From assembly GCA_034087725.1 (NCBI GenBank), contig JAXDXW010000016.1, positions 1,586 through 65,585 on the forward strand: a stretch of DNA of 64,000 nucleotides, given 5' to 3'. Shown piece by piece: positions 33,444 to 41,854 of the stretch (position 1 is the first letter of the stretch; the number at the start of each line of letters is the position of its first letter). This DNA is from Candidatus Onthovivens sp. GTDB taxonomy: Bacteria > Bacillota_I > Bacilli_A > RFN20 > CAG-826. The notes below the pieces were generated by a model. That model saw only the letters and a program-made list of their open reading frames with translations, ran no database searches and was not told where the DNA came from. The translations under genes were made by a program, and so were the position numbers.

Positions 33444-33529
33444 GGGGGCATGGCGTAATGGCAGCCGCGATAGACTCAAAATCTATTGGTCGTGAGACCG
33501 TGTCGGTTCGAGTCCGACTGCCCCCACCA
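33444..33529 (+). tRNA. tRNA-Leu (anticodon CAA), class II with long variable arm, CCA encoded
   Basis: Hand-folded. Acceptor stem GGGGGCA/TGCCCCC, anticodon stem ATAGA/TCTAT with loop CTCAAAA, variable arm GGTC-GTGA-GACC, T arm GTCGG-TTCGAGT-CCGAC. Confidence 0.9.
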
Positions 33530-34094: not shown

Positions 34095-34622
34095 ATGGCG
34101 TTGAAGAAAATCGCCAGTAAGTGGGGAATGTTTAAAGACGCAATTAAAGGTCTTGTGACGCTCGGGATAGGAATCCTATTAATTATTTTAGGTTTCGCCA
34201 CACTTGCTATTTTGCCTTTAGCAATTATTTGTTTTATTGCTGGAGGATCGATGACTTTTACAGGTCTTGGATTAATAATTCATAATAAGAGAAATAATTC
34301 TTTTCTTATTGATCCAGAAAATAGGCCATCATCTAAATCTACTTCAGCTTTAAAAACAAGTAATGACCTGGTTAATGAATTTAAAAGTAGAATAGAAAAT
34401 TATTCATCAAGAATTAGTGTTAGCTATACTTTAGGGAATAATGGAAAAATAATCTTAACAGCTTATATTGATTGTAGTGTGTGGACAGGAGCCGGAGAAG
34501 CAGCTGACGCTAGAGAAGGAGATAAAATTTATAATTCAATATCAACTGAAGCTGTAAATATTTATCGTAAAGTTGCTAAAAATTGTCCGTTTGTTTTAGA
34601 AATAAAGTGCTATCGCGAATAA
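34095..34622 (+). CDS. Hypothetical membrane protein (two N-terminal TM helices)
   Basis: Intact 175-aa ORF with TM helices LVTLGIGILLIILGFATLAILPLAIICFIAGG. I recognise no family. Confidence 0.5.
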   Translation: MALKKIASKWGMFKDAIKGLVTLGIGILLIILGFATLAILPLAIICFIAGGSMTFTGLGLIIHNKRNNSFLIDPENRPSSKSTSALKTSNDLVNEFKSRIENYSSRISVSYTLGNNGKIILTAYIDCSVWTGAGEAADAREGDKIYNSISTEAVNIYRKVAKNCPFVLEIKCYRE

Positions 34623-34846
34623 AAAAGTTTTAATAAATAATTTTTTATTTCAAAAACCTAGCTTATTTAAATTTTATTTTATATAGTAATCATTTTTTTA
34701 ATAAAATTTTTGTGTAATTAAATGGTTTTAAATATACAAATTATTCTTTTTGTAACAATTTATTTCTTAAAGATTATATAAAATACATTATCTACTTTTA
34801 AAAATTAATTTTTACTCTATAATTTATTTAATTGCGAGGTTTTATT

Positions 34847-36268
34847 ATGAACAAGAAAATAACTATTTTATTACTAGCACCGGCTCTATTATTAACCGGT
34901 TGTAATCAATCAGGAGACAGTCGCTCTCAAATCGAAATTGCTTTAGAAAGCAACAAAGGATCTGTTCTTTTTACTGGAAGTTTTACAGATAAAGCTGAGT
35001 ATACAAGTTTTGTTAGTCAAGCTAACAACTATACTAAAGTTTATAAAGCAGATATAGGCTTTACTGGGGACGCTACAACAACCCGATTAACTCCATATTT
35101 AGCAGAGGGTAATTTAGACGAAGAAAATGCATCAATTGAATCTTATTTTAAAACAGAAGATGGGTTATTAGCTAAACAAATCGTTAATCCAACTAATGTT
35201 GTTGAATTAGAAACAATTAAGGATTTTGATGGAAAAACACAGCTATGGTCTGAGACTAGAAGTAATCCTTTTTCTTTGTTGAGTTTATCAGATTATAAAG
35301 TTTCTTCTTCAAATAGCTATTTATTTACCTTAGAAAGAAATAAGGCAAACATATTTGCAAGTCATTTAATAGGAGAAACAGTGACTGGTGCACAAGTTAG
35401 CTTTAGTGTTTCAACTTCTTCAAATATTACAGTTTCAGTTTCGTCTGCAAAAGCTACAAGTTATGTATTTAATCCATCAAGCACTTCATATTCAGAAGTA
35501 TTACATACTTATTCTGCAACTTTAGATGTTAAATTTGAAATCCCAGAAATTTATAATTTAGAGCCACTAACAGTCAAACAAGAACTAAATGAATTAGAAA
35601 CTTGGTTCGATGGTTTTAATTACAATAATTTTACTATGGGCTTTGCACAGTCTGATTCTACAGAAGTCACAAGCGCTTTCTTCTTCCGCGAAGGTAAAAT
35701 CTATGGCCAAACTATGATGTATGGAATGCCAGAGCCATTTATGCTTGACATTTATTTTGAAGAAAACAGAGACACTGGCTTTATGGATTCTTGTTGGGCA
35801 ACGCTTTCAGAAACAACTGAAGAATTAGTTTGGATTAAAACATCAGATGATCCAAACGAAAAGGATAATTTATTGGTTCCTCATAATAAAACATATGAAA
35901 ATTTATCTTGTAGGGCAGATCGTGTTAGTTCTGCATTATTTGATGTCATAAATGCAGGTACAGAAAATGAATATTATTTATCAAGTGGAGAAAATGCAAA
36001 ATATATGTCTTCATATTTGCTTCCTGGGGTCTTTGAAGCCTATACAGCTGTTTCTGGAGCTGTTCCAGAATTTCTGCGTAATGCATGTTCTTCTGTAAAA
36101 ATTATGCCAGATAGCGATGGTATGTGGTTTACAATTGAGGGATTTGCTTCTCAAGGTGGAGCTTCACTTAGAGCTAGTACAAGATTTAAATTATTTAACA
36201 TCGGAACTACAGAAATTCCATTTACAGTAGATATTTCTAAAGCTATTGATTTTGCTGATTTTAAATAA
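34847..36268 (+). CDS. Lipoprotein, unknown function
   Basis: The ATG at 34847 follows GAGG. Lipobox LLLTGC. I recognise no family. Confidence 0.65.
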   Translation: MNKKITILLLAPALLLTGCNQSGDSRSQIEIALESNKGSVLFTGSFTDKAEYTSFVSQANNYTKVYKADIGFTGDATTTRLTPYLAEGNLDEENASIESYFKTEDGLLAKQIVNPTNVVELETIKDFDGKTQLWSETRSNPFSLLSLSDYKVSSSNSYLFTLERNKANIFASHLIGETVTGAQVSFSVSTSSNITVSVSSAKATSYVFNPSSTSYSEVLHTYSATLDVKFEIPEIYNLEPLTVKQELNELETWFDGFNYNNFTMGFAQSDSTEVTSAFFFREGKIYGQTMMYGMPEPFMLDIYFEENRDTGFMDSCWATLSETTEELVWIKTSDDPNEKDNLLVPHNKTYENLSCRADRVSSALFDVINAGTENEYYLSSGENAKYMSSYLLPGVFEAYTAVSGAVPEFLRNACSSVKIMPDSDGMWFTIEGFASQGGASLRASTRFKLFNIGTTEIPFTVDISKAIDFADFK

Positions 36269-36394: not shown

Positions 36395-36422
36395 TTGACA
36401 TATGTATAAACTTATATAGAAT
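36395..36422 (+). promoter_or_regulatory. Sigma-70-type promoter of the riboswitch-controlled operon
   Basis: TTGACA (36395-36400), a 16-nt spacer, then TAGAAT (36417-36422). Confidence 0.6.
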
Positions 36423-36430
36423 ATAGAAGA

Positions 36431-36643
36431 AGATTGATAGAGGCGCGGCCTAAAATAGTAACTTGATGAAGAGGCATCTAGTGATTCAAGCGAAAGGGAG
36501 GGCTGCCGAAACATCAATAAGGCATTATTGATGATTGGGCTATGGGAGAATATCCCTATAGACTCCTAGATTAAATCTAGAGGCGCTATCGATGTGATTC
36601 CGAATTTGTGATTGCATCGATTGTGATGCAATCTTTTATTTTT
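36431..36643 (+). ncRNA. Lysine riboswitch (L-box) with intrinsic terminator expression platform
   Basis: L-box signatures are present in the correct order: GATAGAGGCGC, AGTA, GAAAGGGAGG, GCCGAA, TTGGG, GGAGA and the closing GGCGCTATC. The terminator is GATTGCATC/GATGCAATC (36610-36633) plus TTTTATTTTT. The RBS GGAGGA lies just downstream. Confidence 0.8.
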
Positions 36644-36654
36644 CGGAGGACATT

Positions 36655-37557
36655 ATGAAAAACAAATCATTAATCTTTGCATGCTTCTCACTCCTTGCAG
36701 CATGTACCATGAGCAGTTGTTCAAATTCTAATAATGGACCAGTTTATAAATTAATTATTGCTGGAATGACTGATACAGCAGAAAGAAGGCAATCAATCGA
36801 TTTCTCTAATCCTTATTATCAAAGCGAATTAGTTTTGGTTTGCAAATCTAGTGAAGGAATCGATTCAAACAAAGTTTATTCAGAATCTGAAGTTGCCGAA
36901 ATTTTAGATGGAAAAATCTTAATTTCACAGACAGGTACAGTAACCGACGACATGATTGAAGATGTATTTGTTAAAAAGTTTAATGCAATCAGAGCAAATA
37001 GTGTTGATAGTTTTACAACCGCTAGTATTAGTGTTTTAAATGGACAAGCTTTTGCTTTCACTGCTGAATTACCGGTTGCTAAGGCATATGTCGGAGGTAG
37101 TGAAGGTCAATTAACAATAATGCATATTGATGAAAACATTTTAGGTGAAGAAAACTTAGCTTCCTTAGGTGTTTCAATCGGTATTAAAAAGGGCCAAAGT
37201 GAATTTGTTTCAAAACTAAATGAAGCATTAGACGCAATTAGCAATGATGCAAGAAATTCAATAATGGAAGAAATGGTTTCATTTAATATGAATAATAATG
37301 AAGCTAAAGATAATATTAGATCTAAGTTAACTGGAGAAAATGGCACTATTATTATTGGCTTGGAATGCAATTATCCATCTTTTAACTGGACAGAATTTGA
37401 ACAAAATAATTATACATACAATATAACTGGCAAAAGTACTGAATTTGCTGAGGGGTATGATGTAGAAATCGCATATAGAATCGCCTCCTATTTAGGAATG
37501 ACATTAGAAATAGAAAAGATGGAATGGGATGCCCTTTTACCTTGGGCAAATATTTAA
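36655..37557 (+). CDS. Amino-acid ABC transporter substrate-binding lipoprotein (SBP_bac_3 fold, circularly permuted order)
   Basis: Lipoprotein signal (LLAAC/MSSC). The mature N-terminus, KLIIAGMTDTAERRQSIDFSNPYY, is normally mid-protein. The C-terminus, IIIGLECNYPSFNW..GYDVEIAYRIASYLGMTLEIEKMEWDALLP, is normally the N-terminal unit. Confidence 0.75.
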   Translation: MKNKSLIFACFSLLAACTMSSCSNSNNGPVYKLIIAGMTDTAERRQSIDFSNPYYQSELVLVCKSSEGIDSNKVYSESEVAEILDGKILISQTGTVTDDMIEDVFVKKFNAIRANSVDSFTTASISVLNGQAFAFTAELPVAKAYVGGSEGQLTIMHIDENILGEENLASLGVSIGIKKGQSEFVSKLNEALDAISNDARNSIMEEMVSFNMNNNEAKDNIRSKLTGENGTIIIGLECNYPSFNWTEFEQNNYTYNITGKSTEFAEGYDVEIAYRIASYLGMTLEIEKMEWDALLPWANI

Positions 37558-37559
37558 AA

Positions 37560-38318
37560 ATGCGGGATATTTTTGTAAATAACATCACAAGTTTTGGTTA
37601 TGGTATTGCTACTACTTTATTTTTAGCAGTAGTTGGTACTTTTGGTGGTCTTTTAATAGGAATATTTTTAGCTTTAGGAAGGACCCTAAAAATTAATGCT
37701 CATGATAATAAAGTAGTTTTATTAATTAAGAAGTTTATTAATTTTATATCATATATTTATATTCAAGTTTTTAGAGGAACTCCAATGATGCTTCAAGCAA
37801 TGATTTTTTTCTTTGGAATCCCTTTATCTTGGTCTAAATTAGGGGACCATCCAATTTTTAATGGTTATCTTTTGTGTGGAAGTATTGTTATAGTATTAAA
37901 TACTGCTGCATATATTGGCGAAATTTTAAGAGGTGGTATTAATTCTGTCGATGTTGGTCAAGAAGAAGGAGCACTTTCTTTAGGGATGACTCATTTTCAA
38001 GCAATGTTTTTAGTTGTTGTACCACAAGCTCTCAAAAATTCTATACCTGCTATTGGAAATGAGTTTATTGTCAATATTAAAGATTCATCTGTATTAAATG
38101 TAATTGGTTTAACCGAGTTATTTATGTATGGAAAGATTATTGTAAATAACACTTATAAAGCAATTGAAACGTATGTAATATTGGCGATTATTTACTTATT
38201 CTTAACAGTTGTCGCTTCTTTAATCTTGAAGCTGATAGAAAAAGCAATGAAAGGCGATATTCATTTTGATATTAATTATTTCAAACATGCTGGTTCGCTT
38301 TTCGGAGGTAAAAAATAA
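37560..38318 (+). CDS. Amino-acid ABC transporter permease
   Basis: HisM/GlnP-type permease with the EAA-like loop ([19 protein letters not shown]). The ATG lies 3 nt after the SBP stop. Confidence 0.85.
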
Positions 38319-39345: not shown

Positions 39346-40680
39346 ATGAAAACAACTGTAGTAAAATATATCATGCGTATGAAGCAGGATTTAAAGAAAG
39401 AAAAAAAGAAAAGATATAAATATTTGATATATCTTTTTTTAATTATAGGACTAACTGCATTTGTTCTATATTTTTCTTTGCGAGGTAATACAAAATATAA
39501 CGGCGAAGACATCCTGACGATCATTGCTATTGGAAAAATCTTTGCTGATATTGATATCGGCTACTTATTTTTGTTTCTTGGATTAGTACTTTTGTATCAT
39601 TTTTTAAGTTCCTTTTGCATCTATTTTTTTGCAAGATTATATACACGAAAATATAAGTTTTATGAAGCGATTGCCAATGAATTAGTTGGTACTTTTTATA
39701 ACTGTATAACACCTGGGACTAATACTGGAGGCCAATTTGCTCAGGCCTTTACATATAAGAAACAAGGAATGAATATTTCTAATGCTGCGAGTATTATGGT
39801 TATGCAGTTTATAATTTACGAATTTGCACTATTATTTGTGGGCTTCGTATCACTTTTCAATTTAGAAAATGTTTTAAGCATTAAATATATTTCTTTATTC
39901 AATGTTAATATTCCTATTGTTATCTTTGTCATCCTTGGATTTATTATTTCTTTATTTAAAATCCTTGGTATTATTTTTATGGCGGTTTCTAGGAGACTCC
40001 ACAACTTTATTACAAATAATGTAATTGATTTTTTATCCAAAATTAGAATTATAAAAGATGCTGAACCTATTAAGTTAAATTTACGTATTCAAGTTGAGAA
40101 CTTTAGATTGGAAGTAAGAAGATTATCTAGTAATATTCCATTCACAATTTTAATGCTTCTTATATATATTTTTATGATTAGTTTGTATTATTTGTTTCCA
40201 TTTTTTATTGGATTATCATTAAATTCCTTTGAATTAGTTGGCCACCCATATATAAATATGTATGAGAGCATTTCCTTTTCTTATTTTCATCAGTTAATAA
40301 GTGGCATAATTCCTATACCTGGAGGAGCTGGTATCTCTGAGTTTATATTTAATAGTTTGTTTAGTGGATATTATAGTGAAGAATTTGTTAGCAATGGCGG
40401 ATGTAAAGCTGCAATGCTTCTTTGGAGAATGTTTACCTATTATATTCCATTTTTGATATCTGCATTCGTTGCTTTTACATACAAAGGCAAGGGAGTGAAG
40501 AAAGAAGATAGATTGTATTCACTTGACAATAAAACATTTGTTACATTGCAACTTGATGCAATTGAGGAAAAAAACAATAATAATTCACCTCGCCATTGGA
40601 CTAAATCTATTGATAGAAATGAAATAATAGAAAGACTAAAGGAAGAAAAAAATAGTAAAATGAATACAGAGGACAAATAG
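39346..40680 (+). CDS. UPF0104 / LPG_synthase_TM-type flippase-like membrane protein
   Basis: VGTFYNCITPGTNTGGQFAQAFTYKKQG motif and about 8 TM helices. Confidence 0.7.
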   Translation: MKTTVVKYIMRMKQDLKKEKKKRYKYLIYLFLIIGLTAFVLYFSLRGNTKYNGEDILTIIAIGKIFADIDIGYLFLFLGLVLLYHFLSSFCIYFFARLYTRKYKFYEAIANELVGTFYNCITPGTNTGGQFAQAFTYKKQGMNISNAASIMVMQFIIYEFALLFVGFVSLFNLENVLSIKYISLFNVNIPIVIFVILGFIISLFKILGIIFMAVSRRLHNFITNNVIDFLSKIRIIKDAEPIKLNLRIQVENFRLEVRRLSSNIPFTILMLLIYIFMISLYYLFPFFIGLSLNSFELVGHPYINMYESISFSYFHQLISGIIPIPGGAGISEFIFNSLFSGYYSEEFVSNGGCKAAMLLWRMFTYYIPFLISAFVAFTYKGKGVKKEDRLYSLDNKTFVTLQLDAIEEKNNNNSPRHWTKSIDRNEIIERLKEEKNSKMNTEDK

Positions 40681-40681
40681 T

Positions 40682-41854
40682 ATGAAGATTGGTATTTTTA
40701 CAGATACTTTTGCACCTGAAGTAAATGGTGTAGCCGTCAGTTGCAAATCATTAAAAGAAACGCTTGAAAGTGGTGGCCATGAAGTTGTTCTTTTTGCGCC
40801 ATCAAAGAAAACTTATTACGATGAAGAAACACATATATATCATTTGCATGGACTATTTTTAAAAAAATTGTATGGTTACAGATTAGTTTCTCCTTTTAGG
40901 AGAAAAATCTACAAATTTATTAGAGATTTAAATTTAGATTTAATTCACATAAATACTGAATATGGTGTTGGCTTAATAGGCATTTATTCATCACGCAAAT
41001 TTAGTATTCCTATAGTTTATACTTATCATACGAATCTAGAAGATTATACTTATTACATCACTCATGGTTTCATGGATAAGAGTGCAAAAAAAGTTCTTAG
41101 GAAAATTTTAAAAAAATATTGTGAAGATGTCGATGAAATAATTGCACCTAGTGAAGATACTAAATTAAGACTCCAAAAAATGAACATTAATAAAATGATT
41201 AATGTTGTACCAACTGGTTTTAATTTCAATCGTTTTTCAAATGGTGCATCGAACAAAGAAAAGTGCCTAGAAATTAAAAAAAACCTACAAATCTCGGACC
41301 AAAATTTTATTTTATTATGTTTAGGGAGAATTGCAAAAGAAAAAAGCTTTGACATAATCATTGATAATTTTAGATACTTTTTGAACAAAACTAAAAAGTA
41401 TGATGTTAAACTTCTTTTTGTCGGCGATGGGCCAGCAATTAAAAAACTAAAAAAACAAGTAGAAAAATATAAGTTAGAGAAAAATGTTATTTTTACAGGT
41501 AAAGTGCCGATTTCAGAAGTTCAATACTATTATGCTATAAGTGATATTTTTCTTAACGCTTCTACAACTGAAACTCAGGGTTTGACATATATGGAGGCTA
41601 TGGCTGCAGAGAAAATTGTTTTATGCAAAAGAGCAAAATGTCTAGAAGATTTAGTTGTTGATGGTGTTAATGCTTTCTATTTTGAAGATGAAAAGGATTT
41701 TACTAAAAAAATAGTTAACATAATGTCTCTATCTGAAAAAGAAAGAAAGAAGATAACAGATAATGCATTAGCTTCAATCGATAAATATTCTTCTGAAAAT
41801 TTCTTAAAGAATATAATGAGAGTTTATAATAGAGCAATTAGGGATAGATTCTAG
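40682..41854 (+). CDS. GT4 glycosyltransferase (diacylglycerol glucosyltransferase-like)
   Basis: MKIGIFTDTFAPEVNGVAVS N-terminus and an E-x7-E region (TETQGLTYMEAMAAE). It resembles glycolipid synthases of wall-less and Gram-positive bacteria. Confidence 0.75.
   Translation: MKIGIFTDTFAPEVNGVAVSCKSLKETLESGGHEVVLFAPSKKTYYDEETHIYHLHGLFLKKLYGYRLVSPFRRKIYKFIRDLNLDLIHINTEYGVGLIGIYSSRKFSIPIVYTYHTNLEDYTYYITHGFMDKSAKKVLRKILKKYCEDVDEIIAPSEDTKLRLQKMNINKMINVVPTGFNFNRFSNGASNKEKCLEIKKNLQISDQNFILLCLGRIAKEKSFDIIIDNFRYFLNKTKKYDVKLLFVGDGPAIKKLKKQVEKYKLEKNVIFTGKVPISEVQYYYAISDIFLNASTTETQGLTYMEAMAAEKIVLCKRAKCLEDLVVDGVNAFYFEDEKDFTKKIVNIMSLSEKERKKITDNALASIDKYSSENFLKNIMRVYNRAIRDRF

Follow-up and report, generated by a model that had tools for sequence, protein, structure and literature searches.

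A probable natural circular permutant of the family-3 solute-binding fold behind a lysine riboswitch in Candidatus Onthovivens

We analysed a stretch of 64,000 nucleotides of Candidatus Onthovivens sp. (contig JAXDXW010000016.1, positions 1,586 to 65,585 of the forward strand, assembly GCA_034087725.1), hereafter the window, and focus on the gene at 36655..37557 (+), which encodes a solute-binding protein (SBP) whose chain segments stand in swapped order. We divide the family into three segments in a scheme taken from one canonical protein: A is the N-terminal unit, B is β4 plus lobe 2, and C is the stretch that leads back into lobe 1, with the C-terminal helices; chain orders are written ABC (canonical), BCA and CAB throughout. 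The sequence data show that its segments stand in the permuted order BCA and that this order is conserved, and they show the riboswitch and the operon; the three-dimensional fold is predicted, and lysine as substrate, the OFF switch and the origin are inferences. Taken as a whole, including the importer and the origin, we consider it highly probable (about 0.85) that a natural circular permutant of the family-3 fold (type II, cluster F) is encoded here. The gene is that of the substrate-binding lipoprotein in a three-gene ATP-binding-cassette importer for polar amino acids, with one permease and one ATPase, whose complex would presumably contain two transmembrane domains and two nucleotide-binding domains (TMD2-NBD2). 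The open reading frame (ORF) is intact, with 300 codons and a TAA stop at 37555-37557, and its N-terminus has a hydrophobic signal and two lipobox-like cysteines, LLAAC17 and MSSC22.

The swapped order emerged from searches against both sequences and profiles. With phmmer, 40 PDB sequences matched the protein at E ≤ 0.01, and in the four best matches the alignment fell into two stretches in swapped order. Query residues 228-296 aligned with the N-terminal β1-α3 unit (chain residues 35-93 of 4ymx, 9/10-62/63 of 4prs and 6svf), and query residues 32-200 with chain residues 71-222 or 101-244 of the solved SBPs. The NCBIfam profile TIGR01096 covers query 31-198 with its positions 84-239/250, and PRK11260 covers query 215-295 with its positions 26-93/266. 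Pfam places the protein in SBP_bac_3 (PF00497) at 70.2 bits (cut-off 26.4 bits), the best stretch being query 33-199 against profile positions 61-120/132, which is the B-C part alone. The protein thus matches the family profile and departs from the canonical colinear chain order, and no colinear full-length match to a canonical protein was found.

The closest canonical relative, P0026, aligned with the native protein in two swapped high-scoring segment pairs (E 1e-56 and 6e-21). Once residues 216-300 were moved ahead of residues 28-215, a single colinear segment pair spanned 254 columns at 51.6% identity with 4 gaps (E 1e-83). A cyclic shift is therefore sufficient to turn two swapped segments into one colinear alignment, as in a circular permutant. 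The rejoined ends, after de-permutation at residue 226, read ...WDALLPWANI/GPVYKLIIAGMT against ...WESLITDLQLG SI-NAVIAGMT in the canonical relative, with a single one-residue gap. Because the gap at the rejoined ends is limited to one residue, the chain appears, from the alignment, to have been cut cleanly in the α3-β4 loop, with nothing lost and nothing duplicated. The initial annotation had called the gene an intact amino-acid binding lipoprotein of the SBP_bac_3 family that is circularly permuted and whose joined termini recreate the canonical junction, and had predicted two partial profile matches in swapped order; all of this was borne out. Its parts are as follows:

36655..36720, + strand: lipoprotein signal peptide, residues 1-22, with lipobox cysteines C17 and C22, assigned from the sequence and from the invariance of C22
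36736..37104, + strand: segment B, residues 28-150, corresponding to residues 71 to about 175 of solved SBPs and to residues 103-222 of P0026
37105..37293, + strand: segment C, residues 151-213, leading back into lobe 1 (LTIMHID, GVSIGIKKG), then the C-terminal helices of the canonical fold
37294..37344, + strand: linker, residues 214-230, from the old C-terminus to the old N-terminus, a lower-confidence loop between the two matched stretches
37345..37557, + strand: segment A, residues 231-300 and the stop codon, corresponding to residues 9-63 or 35-93 of solved SBPs

Segment B holds the canonical β4 (YKLIIAGMT), the carboxylate-binding R44 motif, the first crossing of the hinge and all of lobe 2, and ends with TAELPVAKAYV. 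Segment A is the canonical N-terminal unit β1-α1-(hairpin)-α2-β3-α3, with the sequence TIIIGLECNYPSFNW...AEGYDVEIA...KMEWDALLPWANI, here placed at the C-terminus; it accounts for the second segment pair with P0026 (residues 28-95 of that protein, E 6e-21).

An AlphaFold2 model of the binding protein, built from a 52-sequence alignment, contains all canonical secondary-structure elements, with a predicted local distance difference test score (pLDDT) of 86.7 and a predicted template-modelling score (pTM) of 0.80. The elements run in the order β4 (residues 30-38), lobe 2, the return strands (153-158 and 172-178) and the C-terminal helices (182-213), followed after the loop 214-230 by β1 (231-237), a hairpin, α2 (268-280), β3 (283-289) and α3 (291-299). 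Confidence is high in the blocks of segment B (pLDDT 90-98) and in segment A (81-96, save about 63 in the 241-250 loop). It is about 63 at residues 211-220 of the linker region, where residues 214-230 have no secondary structure, and lowest in the signal region (below 50 in segments 10-12 and 16-21, with blocks 1-10 and 11-20 averaging 47 and 46). Foldseek matched the B-C part of the model to family-3 SBPs with probability 1.00. Against single binding domains its alignments covered about 180 columns with TM-scores of about 0.4-0.5, values that understate the similarity of the folds, as Foldseek aligns sequentially and cannot superpose permutants. The tandem SBD1-SBD2 crystal structure 6h30 (SBD, substrate-binding domain), by comparison, was covered over 270-274 columns. 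Short alignments to one domain and long ones to a tandem are, at the level of the predicted model, the classic signature of a permutant. No solved structure of BCA or CAB order was matched, either by sequence against the PDB or by Foldseek.

The BCA order is conserved. In the protein search there was a sharp step between P0001-P0023, with 93-100% query coverage at 55-66% identity, and the later matches of about 283 residues, which covered about 58% of the query. The best 120 matches comprise 63 proteins of ABC order, 32 of CAB order and 25 of BCA order, the last being 22 full-length proteins and three fragments. The BCA order is found in more than 20 protein clusters, drawn from ENA, Logan and NCBI, and in five GTDB species representatives. 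Column identity averages 73% over 18 BCA proteins, C22 is invariant in them, and every chain ends 3-4 residues past an invariant Trp. The relocated A unit is the best-conserved part of this clade and contains its longest invariant runs (GLEC-YPSFNWT, AEGYD-EIA and KM-W).

We found that the same importer occurs in all three cyclic orders. Scanning the GTDB species representatives, we located 80 loci (L008-L087), which come from uncultured gut Bacilli, each with one copy of the binding-protein gene followed by a permease and an ATPase gene; 67 are ABC, eight CAB and five BCA. Among the labels of these loci are Mollicutes, Acholeplasmatales, Erysipelotrichaceae and Candidatus Onthovivens, and some of the bins are evidently misnamed. 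The ABC, BCA and CAB versions share 45-65% identity. In trees computed on cyclically re-ordered alignments each order is monophyletic, and BCA and CAB were each recovered in 60/60 bootstraps. The second permutant, CAB, which the initial annotation did not mention, is found at loci L002, L003, L006, L007, L065, L072, L075, L077, L082-L084 and L087, and in the proteins P0030, P0120 and 30 others. Its chain begins at the strand leading back into lobe 1 and stops behind the last helix of lobe 2, so that a single hinge strand would connect the two lobes. AlphaFold2 gave the CAB protein P0120 a pLDDT of 83.6 and a pTM of 0.80.

In 115 sequences of the three orders, 54 positions are at least 95% conserved, including R44, T39, S91, Q92, E138, E237, Y240 and Y268. 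Eight positions (R44, T39, S91, Q92, T95, E138, Y240 and Y268) reach 99-100%, and we take these to bind the amino acid by analogy with LAO-BP. The motifs retained across the orders are the Arg of GMT-T-ERR, the S-Q/T-x-T and T-A-E motifs of lobe 2, and the E-x-x-Y...F-N-W and G-Y-D motifs of the A unit. Because these 54 positions are conserved regardless of order, the three topologies look isofunctional as judged from their sequences. The mature chain begins at β4, passes through lobe 2 and comes back to lobe 1 and the old C-terminal helices, from where a loop of about 17 residues leads into the old N-terminal unit (β1 to α3), which is predicted to complete lobe 1 and the binding site. Given the positions shared across topologies, ligand capture and docking to the permease should match those of the canonical proteins, and what would change is the attachment point of the lipid anchor.

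The binding protein is the first gene of a compact operon, in which a promoter-like site, a lysine riboswitch and a terminator precede the genes for the binding protein, the permease and the ATPase. Around the binding-protein gene we find:

36395..36422, + strand: promoter-like site TTGACA-16 nt-TAGAAT just 5' of the riboswitch, from a consensus scan, 11/12 matches
36430..36596, + strand: full-length lysine riboswitch aptamer RF00168, cmscan 80.2 bits (gathering score 30), E 5e-21, model positions 1-182
36610..36643, + strand: expression platform, an intrinsic-terminator hairpin GATTGCATCGATTGTGATGCAATC then TTTTATTTTT, from a terminator scan
37560..38318, + strand: permease of the polar-amino-acid type, a single TMD gene, PF00528 at 82 bits
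38318..39250, + strand: GlnQ/HisP-like ATPase with an insert of about 70 residues, PF00005 at 120 bits in two stretches and NCBIfam GlnQ at 286 bits

The promoter-like site is a consensus match whose function would follow from its position. The hairpin has a 10-pair stem and a 4-nt loop and is followed by a T run; 3' of it lie a GGAGG ribosome-binding site and then the start codon of the binding protein. Because the hairpin sits between the aptamer and this ribosome-binding site, riboswitch and terminator probably form a lysine-dependent transcriptional OFF switch. The ATG of the permease at 37560 begins 3 nt past the last base of the binding-protein stop codon, leaving 2 nt between the two genes, so binding domain and TMD are separate polypeptides; riboswitch control of the gene, its adjacency to the permease and the 3-nt spacing had all been stated in the initial annotation. 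A second possible in-frame start of the permease, ATG at 37524, lies inside the binding-protein ORF. Against the NCBIfam GlnP profile the permease scores 139.5 bits, under the equivalog cut-off. The ATPase has 310 residues, its Lys/Glu-rich insert separates the Walker A region from the remainder of the domain, and its best stretch against GlnQ pairs query 137-308 with profile 66-237. Its length varies from 242 to 346 residues in the homologous operons. We considered the long-insert ATPase as a tracker of the permuted topologies and rejected it, as the lengths span this range across topologies with no clean link.

Riboswitches normally control the transport or synthesis of the compound that they bind. 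Of the 87 homologous loci examined, 84 have a lysine riboswitch upstream, in all three topologies and at every CAB locus; the other three loci have too little upstream sequence. A 5-sequence nhmmer model of the riboswitch had missed 22 loci; 20 of them extend far enough upstream, and in each of these 20 Rfam found the riboswitch. The substrate of the importer in its low-GC uncultured gut Bacilli host is hence most likely L-lysine, on the strength of the riboswitch and of family membership. Neither the riboswitch class nor the likely substrate had been named in the initial annotation.

Fusion and tandem forms of the binding protein bear on the origin of the permutation. In four species representatives (L009-L012) and in P0121 the BCA domain continues in frame into the permease (...WDALLPWAAIEGEASSNSV...QFGYGIATT), and in the window, in L001, in L008 and in most protein clusters a stop codon stands at the fusion point. 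In a BCA tree rooted with ABC and CAB the fused forms are basal and the split forms group together, with modest bootstrap support. A search of 1.84 billion representatives with a profile of the BCA clade gave 2171 relatives at E ≤ 1e-3, and among these are ABC-TMD and CAB-TMD fusions, tandem ABC-ABC-TMD proteins (P0122 and P0124) and a CAB-CAB-TMD protein (P0142). The BCA profile runs colinearly across the B1-C1-A2 part of the tandems, its positions 32-295 matching P0122 100-358 and its positions 29-294 matching P0124 104-351. P0122 (locus L089) is preceded by a lysine riboswitch; its contig is polished and 134 kb long. P0124 and P0142 were considered as further tandem links to the lysine regulon and rejected, as neither has a riboswitch; only P0122 provides such a link.

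All three topologies occur fused to the permease. Fusion or fission with the permease and tandem duplication of the binding domain are frequent among the relatives (P0121-P0125, P0133, P0142 and P0171; loci L009-L012, L014-L016, L018, L024, L028, L030, L049, L059 and L089), and multi-domain relatives are listed with up to nine matched stretches. P0142 (L090, 965-3445) has 826 residues in the order C-A-B-C-A-B-TMD, comes from an apparently higher-GC lineage and is encoded 3' of a Mrp/ParA-like ATPase gene; it could consist of two CAB domains or of a canonical ABC domain nested between pieces of another.

We somewhat favour an origin by tandem duplication and trimming. A fusion of the form signal-ABC-ABC-TMD would have lost A1 and B2C2 to give signal-BCA-TMD, and a stop codon would then have separated the binding protein from the permease in the lineage to which the window belongs. 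The initial annotation had likewise suggested a tandem two-SBD ancestor of the GlnP type, and this part of it has gained circumstantial support from the tandem relatives, the riboswitch of P0122 and the basal BCA-TMD fusions, short of proof. The tandem proteins come from more distant subfamilies, and for that reason what they demonstrate is a propensity for duplication rather than the actual ancestor. No second copy and no tandem ABCABC gene lies within 2.5-6 kb of the 87 homologous loci or anywhere across the window, each locus holding one copy.

We weighed these readings against four alternatives. An artefact of assembly, or a rearranged pseudogene remnant that yields no working product, might account for the absence, at first sight, of a colinear match to the SBP models, and some NCBI records annotate merely the last 97 residues of a BCA homolog as a hypothetical protein. 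We regard this as extremely improbable. Contig L088, an independent assembly from another sample, is 98.96% identical to the window and colinear with it over 2217 nt, on which ground misassembly was rejected. The binding-protein genes of the two contigs differ by six synonymous changes and one nonsynonymous change, and two close BCA loci, L010 and L011, by 50 synonymous and 11 nonsynonymous codons. This excess of synonymous changes, together with the many clusters that keep the order, their intact ORFs with fixed ends, the strongly conserved relocated unit and the retained riboswitch and tightly coupled permease and ATPase, points to a conserved architecture rather than to decay, and a pseudogene or fragment was rejected on these grounds. 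The A unit might instead be the leftover of a second domain, either dangling or complementing the B-C part of another molecule in a domain-swapped dimer. Such a swap has a parallel in Thermotoga ArgBP, which reportedly swaps its C-terminal helix, suggesting that domain-swapped dimers are possible among family-3 binding proteins. The low model confidence of the linker would suit it, as would the probable homodimeric state of the transporter, in which two binding domains could be close in the fused relatives. We nevertheless judge it very unlikely: the monomer model has a pTM of 0.80 and a confident A unit, the termini rebuild the canonical α3-β4 loop to within one residue, as for packing in the same chain, and the linker, at about 17 residues, exceeds the 12-residue (GGS)4 that sufficed in an engineered permutant of LAO-BP (PMC5087393). 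The A-unit residues that line the binding site in canonical proteins are invariant, which speaks against this reading as well, although it would also fit a swap.

The two other alternatives concern the substrate and the history. The main substrate could be another polar amino acid or a lysine-related compound such as arginine, ornithine or diaminopimelate, with the riboswitch doing no more than tie expression of the importer to lysine status. The best matches are indeed binders of Arg, Gln or Lys-Arg-Orn, all under every equivalog cut-off, and the lysX-lysY assignment in the literature is itself a genomic inference (PMC5584792). We find this alternative unlikely in view of a linkage between riboswitch and transporter that is kept in nearly all loci and in three topologies, and of the usual match between a riboswitch and the cargo or product of its operon. 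As to the history, the order might have come from a gene that split and fused again, or from a rearrangement within a single-domain gene, with the permease fusions being secondary. This is possible, and the least improbable of the four: a tandem protein of the closest subfamily was not found in the homologous loci or in the profile search, fusion and fission with the permease have recurred (nine canonical ABC loci are fused and others split), and the branching of fused and split forms is weakly supported. Tandem duplication and trimming is preferred since tandem SBD-SBD-TMD relatives exist, one of them under the same riboswitch, since BCA and CAB are both exact windows expected from ABCABC, and since split pairs of A and B-C genes were seen in none of 88 loci. 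Some observations weigh against the permutant reading or its parts. The packing of segment A into lobe 1 of the same chain is a prediction from AlphaFold2 confidence scores. The protein does not reach the NCBIfam equivalog cut-offs for Lys/Arg/Orn, Gln or Arg binding proteins. Bootstraps for the order of fusion and splitting are low (split clade 39/60, fused clade 24/60). The tandems, of more distant subfamilies and with P0122 a recent duplication, are not the direct ancestor. P0124 and P0142, besides having no riboswitch, each directly follow an unrelated gene. The permutation, finally, may be neutral.

The canonical family-3 SBPs (PF00497; type II, cluster F), such as LAO-BP, HisJ, GlnH, ArtJ/ArtI (4ymx) and AncQR (4zv1), are homologous to the window protein over its whole mature chain. 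They have in common with it the Arg that binds the α-carboxylate (GMT-T-ERR), the acidic residue of lobe 2, and a location beside genes for a PAAT-type permease and an ATPase; their two-lobed α/β fold is predicted for it. In contrast to them the window protein runs B-C-A, so that its N-terminus and lipid anchor enter at β4 and its C-terminus exits after α3 of lobe 1. GlnPQ-type transporters (Lactococcus lactis GlnP, 6h30) are built from the same protein families with one or two SBDs fused to the permease, whereas the window protein stops 2 nt before the permease start. In its fused BCA relatives the tether exits from α3 of lobe 1 and not from the canonical C-terminal helix; in these sister lineages the tether to the permease would thus be shifted as well.

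LysXY is a candidate lysine ATP-binding-cassette transporter behind lysine riboswitches in Firmicutes and a phytoplasma, as attributed to Rodionov 2003 in PMC5584792. It too has a lysine riboswitch 5' of a COG0834-type amino-acid system, and its two-gene form, an SBD-permease fusion plus an ATPase, also occurs in many relatives of the window family, as far as its description in the literature allows the comparison. The window binding protein differs from it in being separate and permuted, and the literature searched describes no permutation of LysX. A natural and conserved circular permutation that retains ligand binding is known for TpMglB-2 (Tp0684), an ATP-binding-cassette binding lipoprotein of Treponema pallidum placed in 'Type Ic / Cluster Bc', a permuted type found mainly where the binding protein is tethered to the membrane (PMC4990184). 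TpMglB-2 is a type I, cluster B sugar binder with another cut site and no sequence relationship to the window protein, and is thus an analogue and not a relative; all sequence and fold matches of the window protein are cluster F amino-acid binders, which places it outside cluster Bc. Engineered permutants, cpLAO-BP among others, show that the family-3 fold tolerates joined termini and a new chain break: in cpLAO-BP one hinge strand was cut and the termini were linked, and the resulting Förster resonance energy transfer sensor still binds lysine (Okada 2009; PMC5087393), with a 36-fold lower affinity (PMC5087393). The hinge-strand cut of cpLAO-BP is the design of the natural CAB relatives and not the α3/β4 cut of the window gene. 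Apart from engineered cases and TpMglB-2, our search of the literature turned up no natural permutant of the family-3 fold; most subscription journals lay outside that search, which makes this weak evidence.

Directly 3' of the importer, 39346-40680 (+) encodes a 444-residue membrane protein whose sole domain is LPG_synthase_TM (PF03706, 87 bits), and beyond it 40682-41854 (+) encodes a GT4 glycosyltransferase. That a domain resembling lysyl-phosphatidylglycerol synthase is encoded beside a lysine importer may be coincidence. On the 5' side are genes for a 478-residue predicted lipoprotein with an N-terminal LLTGC (34832-36268, +) and for a 175-residue membrane protein (34095-34622, +), neither with a significant Pfam match. 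The window has a GC content of 28-32% throughout and a positive GC skew over its full length. Besides the riboswitch, the single other Rfam match in the window is a tRNA at 33444-33526.

The permuted order has a consequence for annotation, as profile-based pipelines see a partial domain only. Where relatives have public names, these are generic substrate-binding proteins, and the architecture has gone unrecognised. Three records from metagenome-assembled genomes of Candidatus Onthovivens or Mollicutes (MCI7601767.1, MDY4857118.1 and MDY4937603.1; P0284) are 97-residue hypothetical proteins whose sequence is exactly that of the C-terminal 97 residues (the linker and the A unit) of P0286, a 300-residue BCA protein in the cluster of P0004. 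The match suggests that the permuted gene is cut short or divided by homology-guided annotation, the alternative being a real frameshift in those genomes.

The binding proteins of ATP-binding-cassette importers serve as textbook models of how folds evolve, how hinges move and how biosensors can be designed. The wider interest of the window gene lies in its family context, with three cyclic orders and fused and tandem forms under one riboswitch. At its most far-reaching, the reading would be that one orthologous family of lysine-riboswitch importers has reached all three cyclic orders through at least two separate natural permutations, with CAB held by a single hinge strand, with tandem and fused relatives that would fit as intermediates still extant and with the rearrangements being adaptive; taken as a whole we consider this doubtful. 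Were the adaptive reading true, an anchor or tether that has moved on lobe 1 (BCA) or onto separate lobes (CAB) would alter docking geometry, hinge dynamics or affinity. The same importer and riboswitch in the canonical and two permuted orders, with fused and tandem forms that fit as intermediates, amount to a natural experiment. It bears on permutation by duplication and on which cut sites are tolerated, which is useful for sensor engineering, and on what the connectivity of the chain and the position of the tether mean for folding, for ligand affinity and for delivery to the permease.

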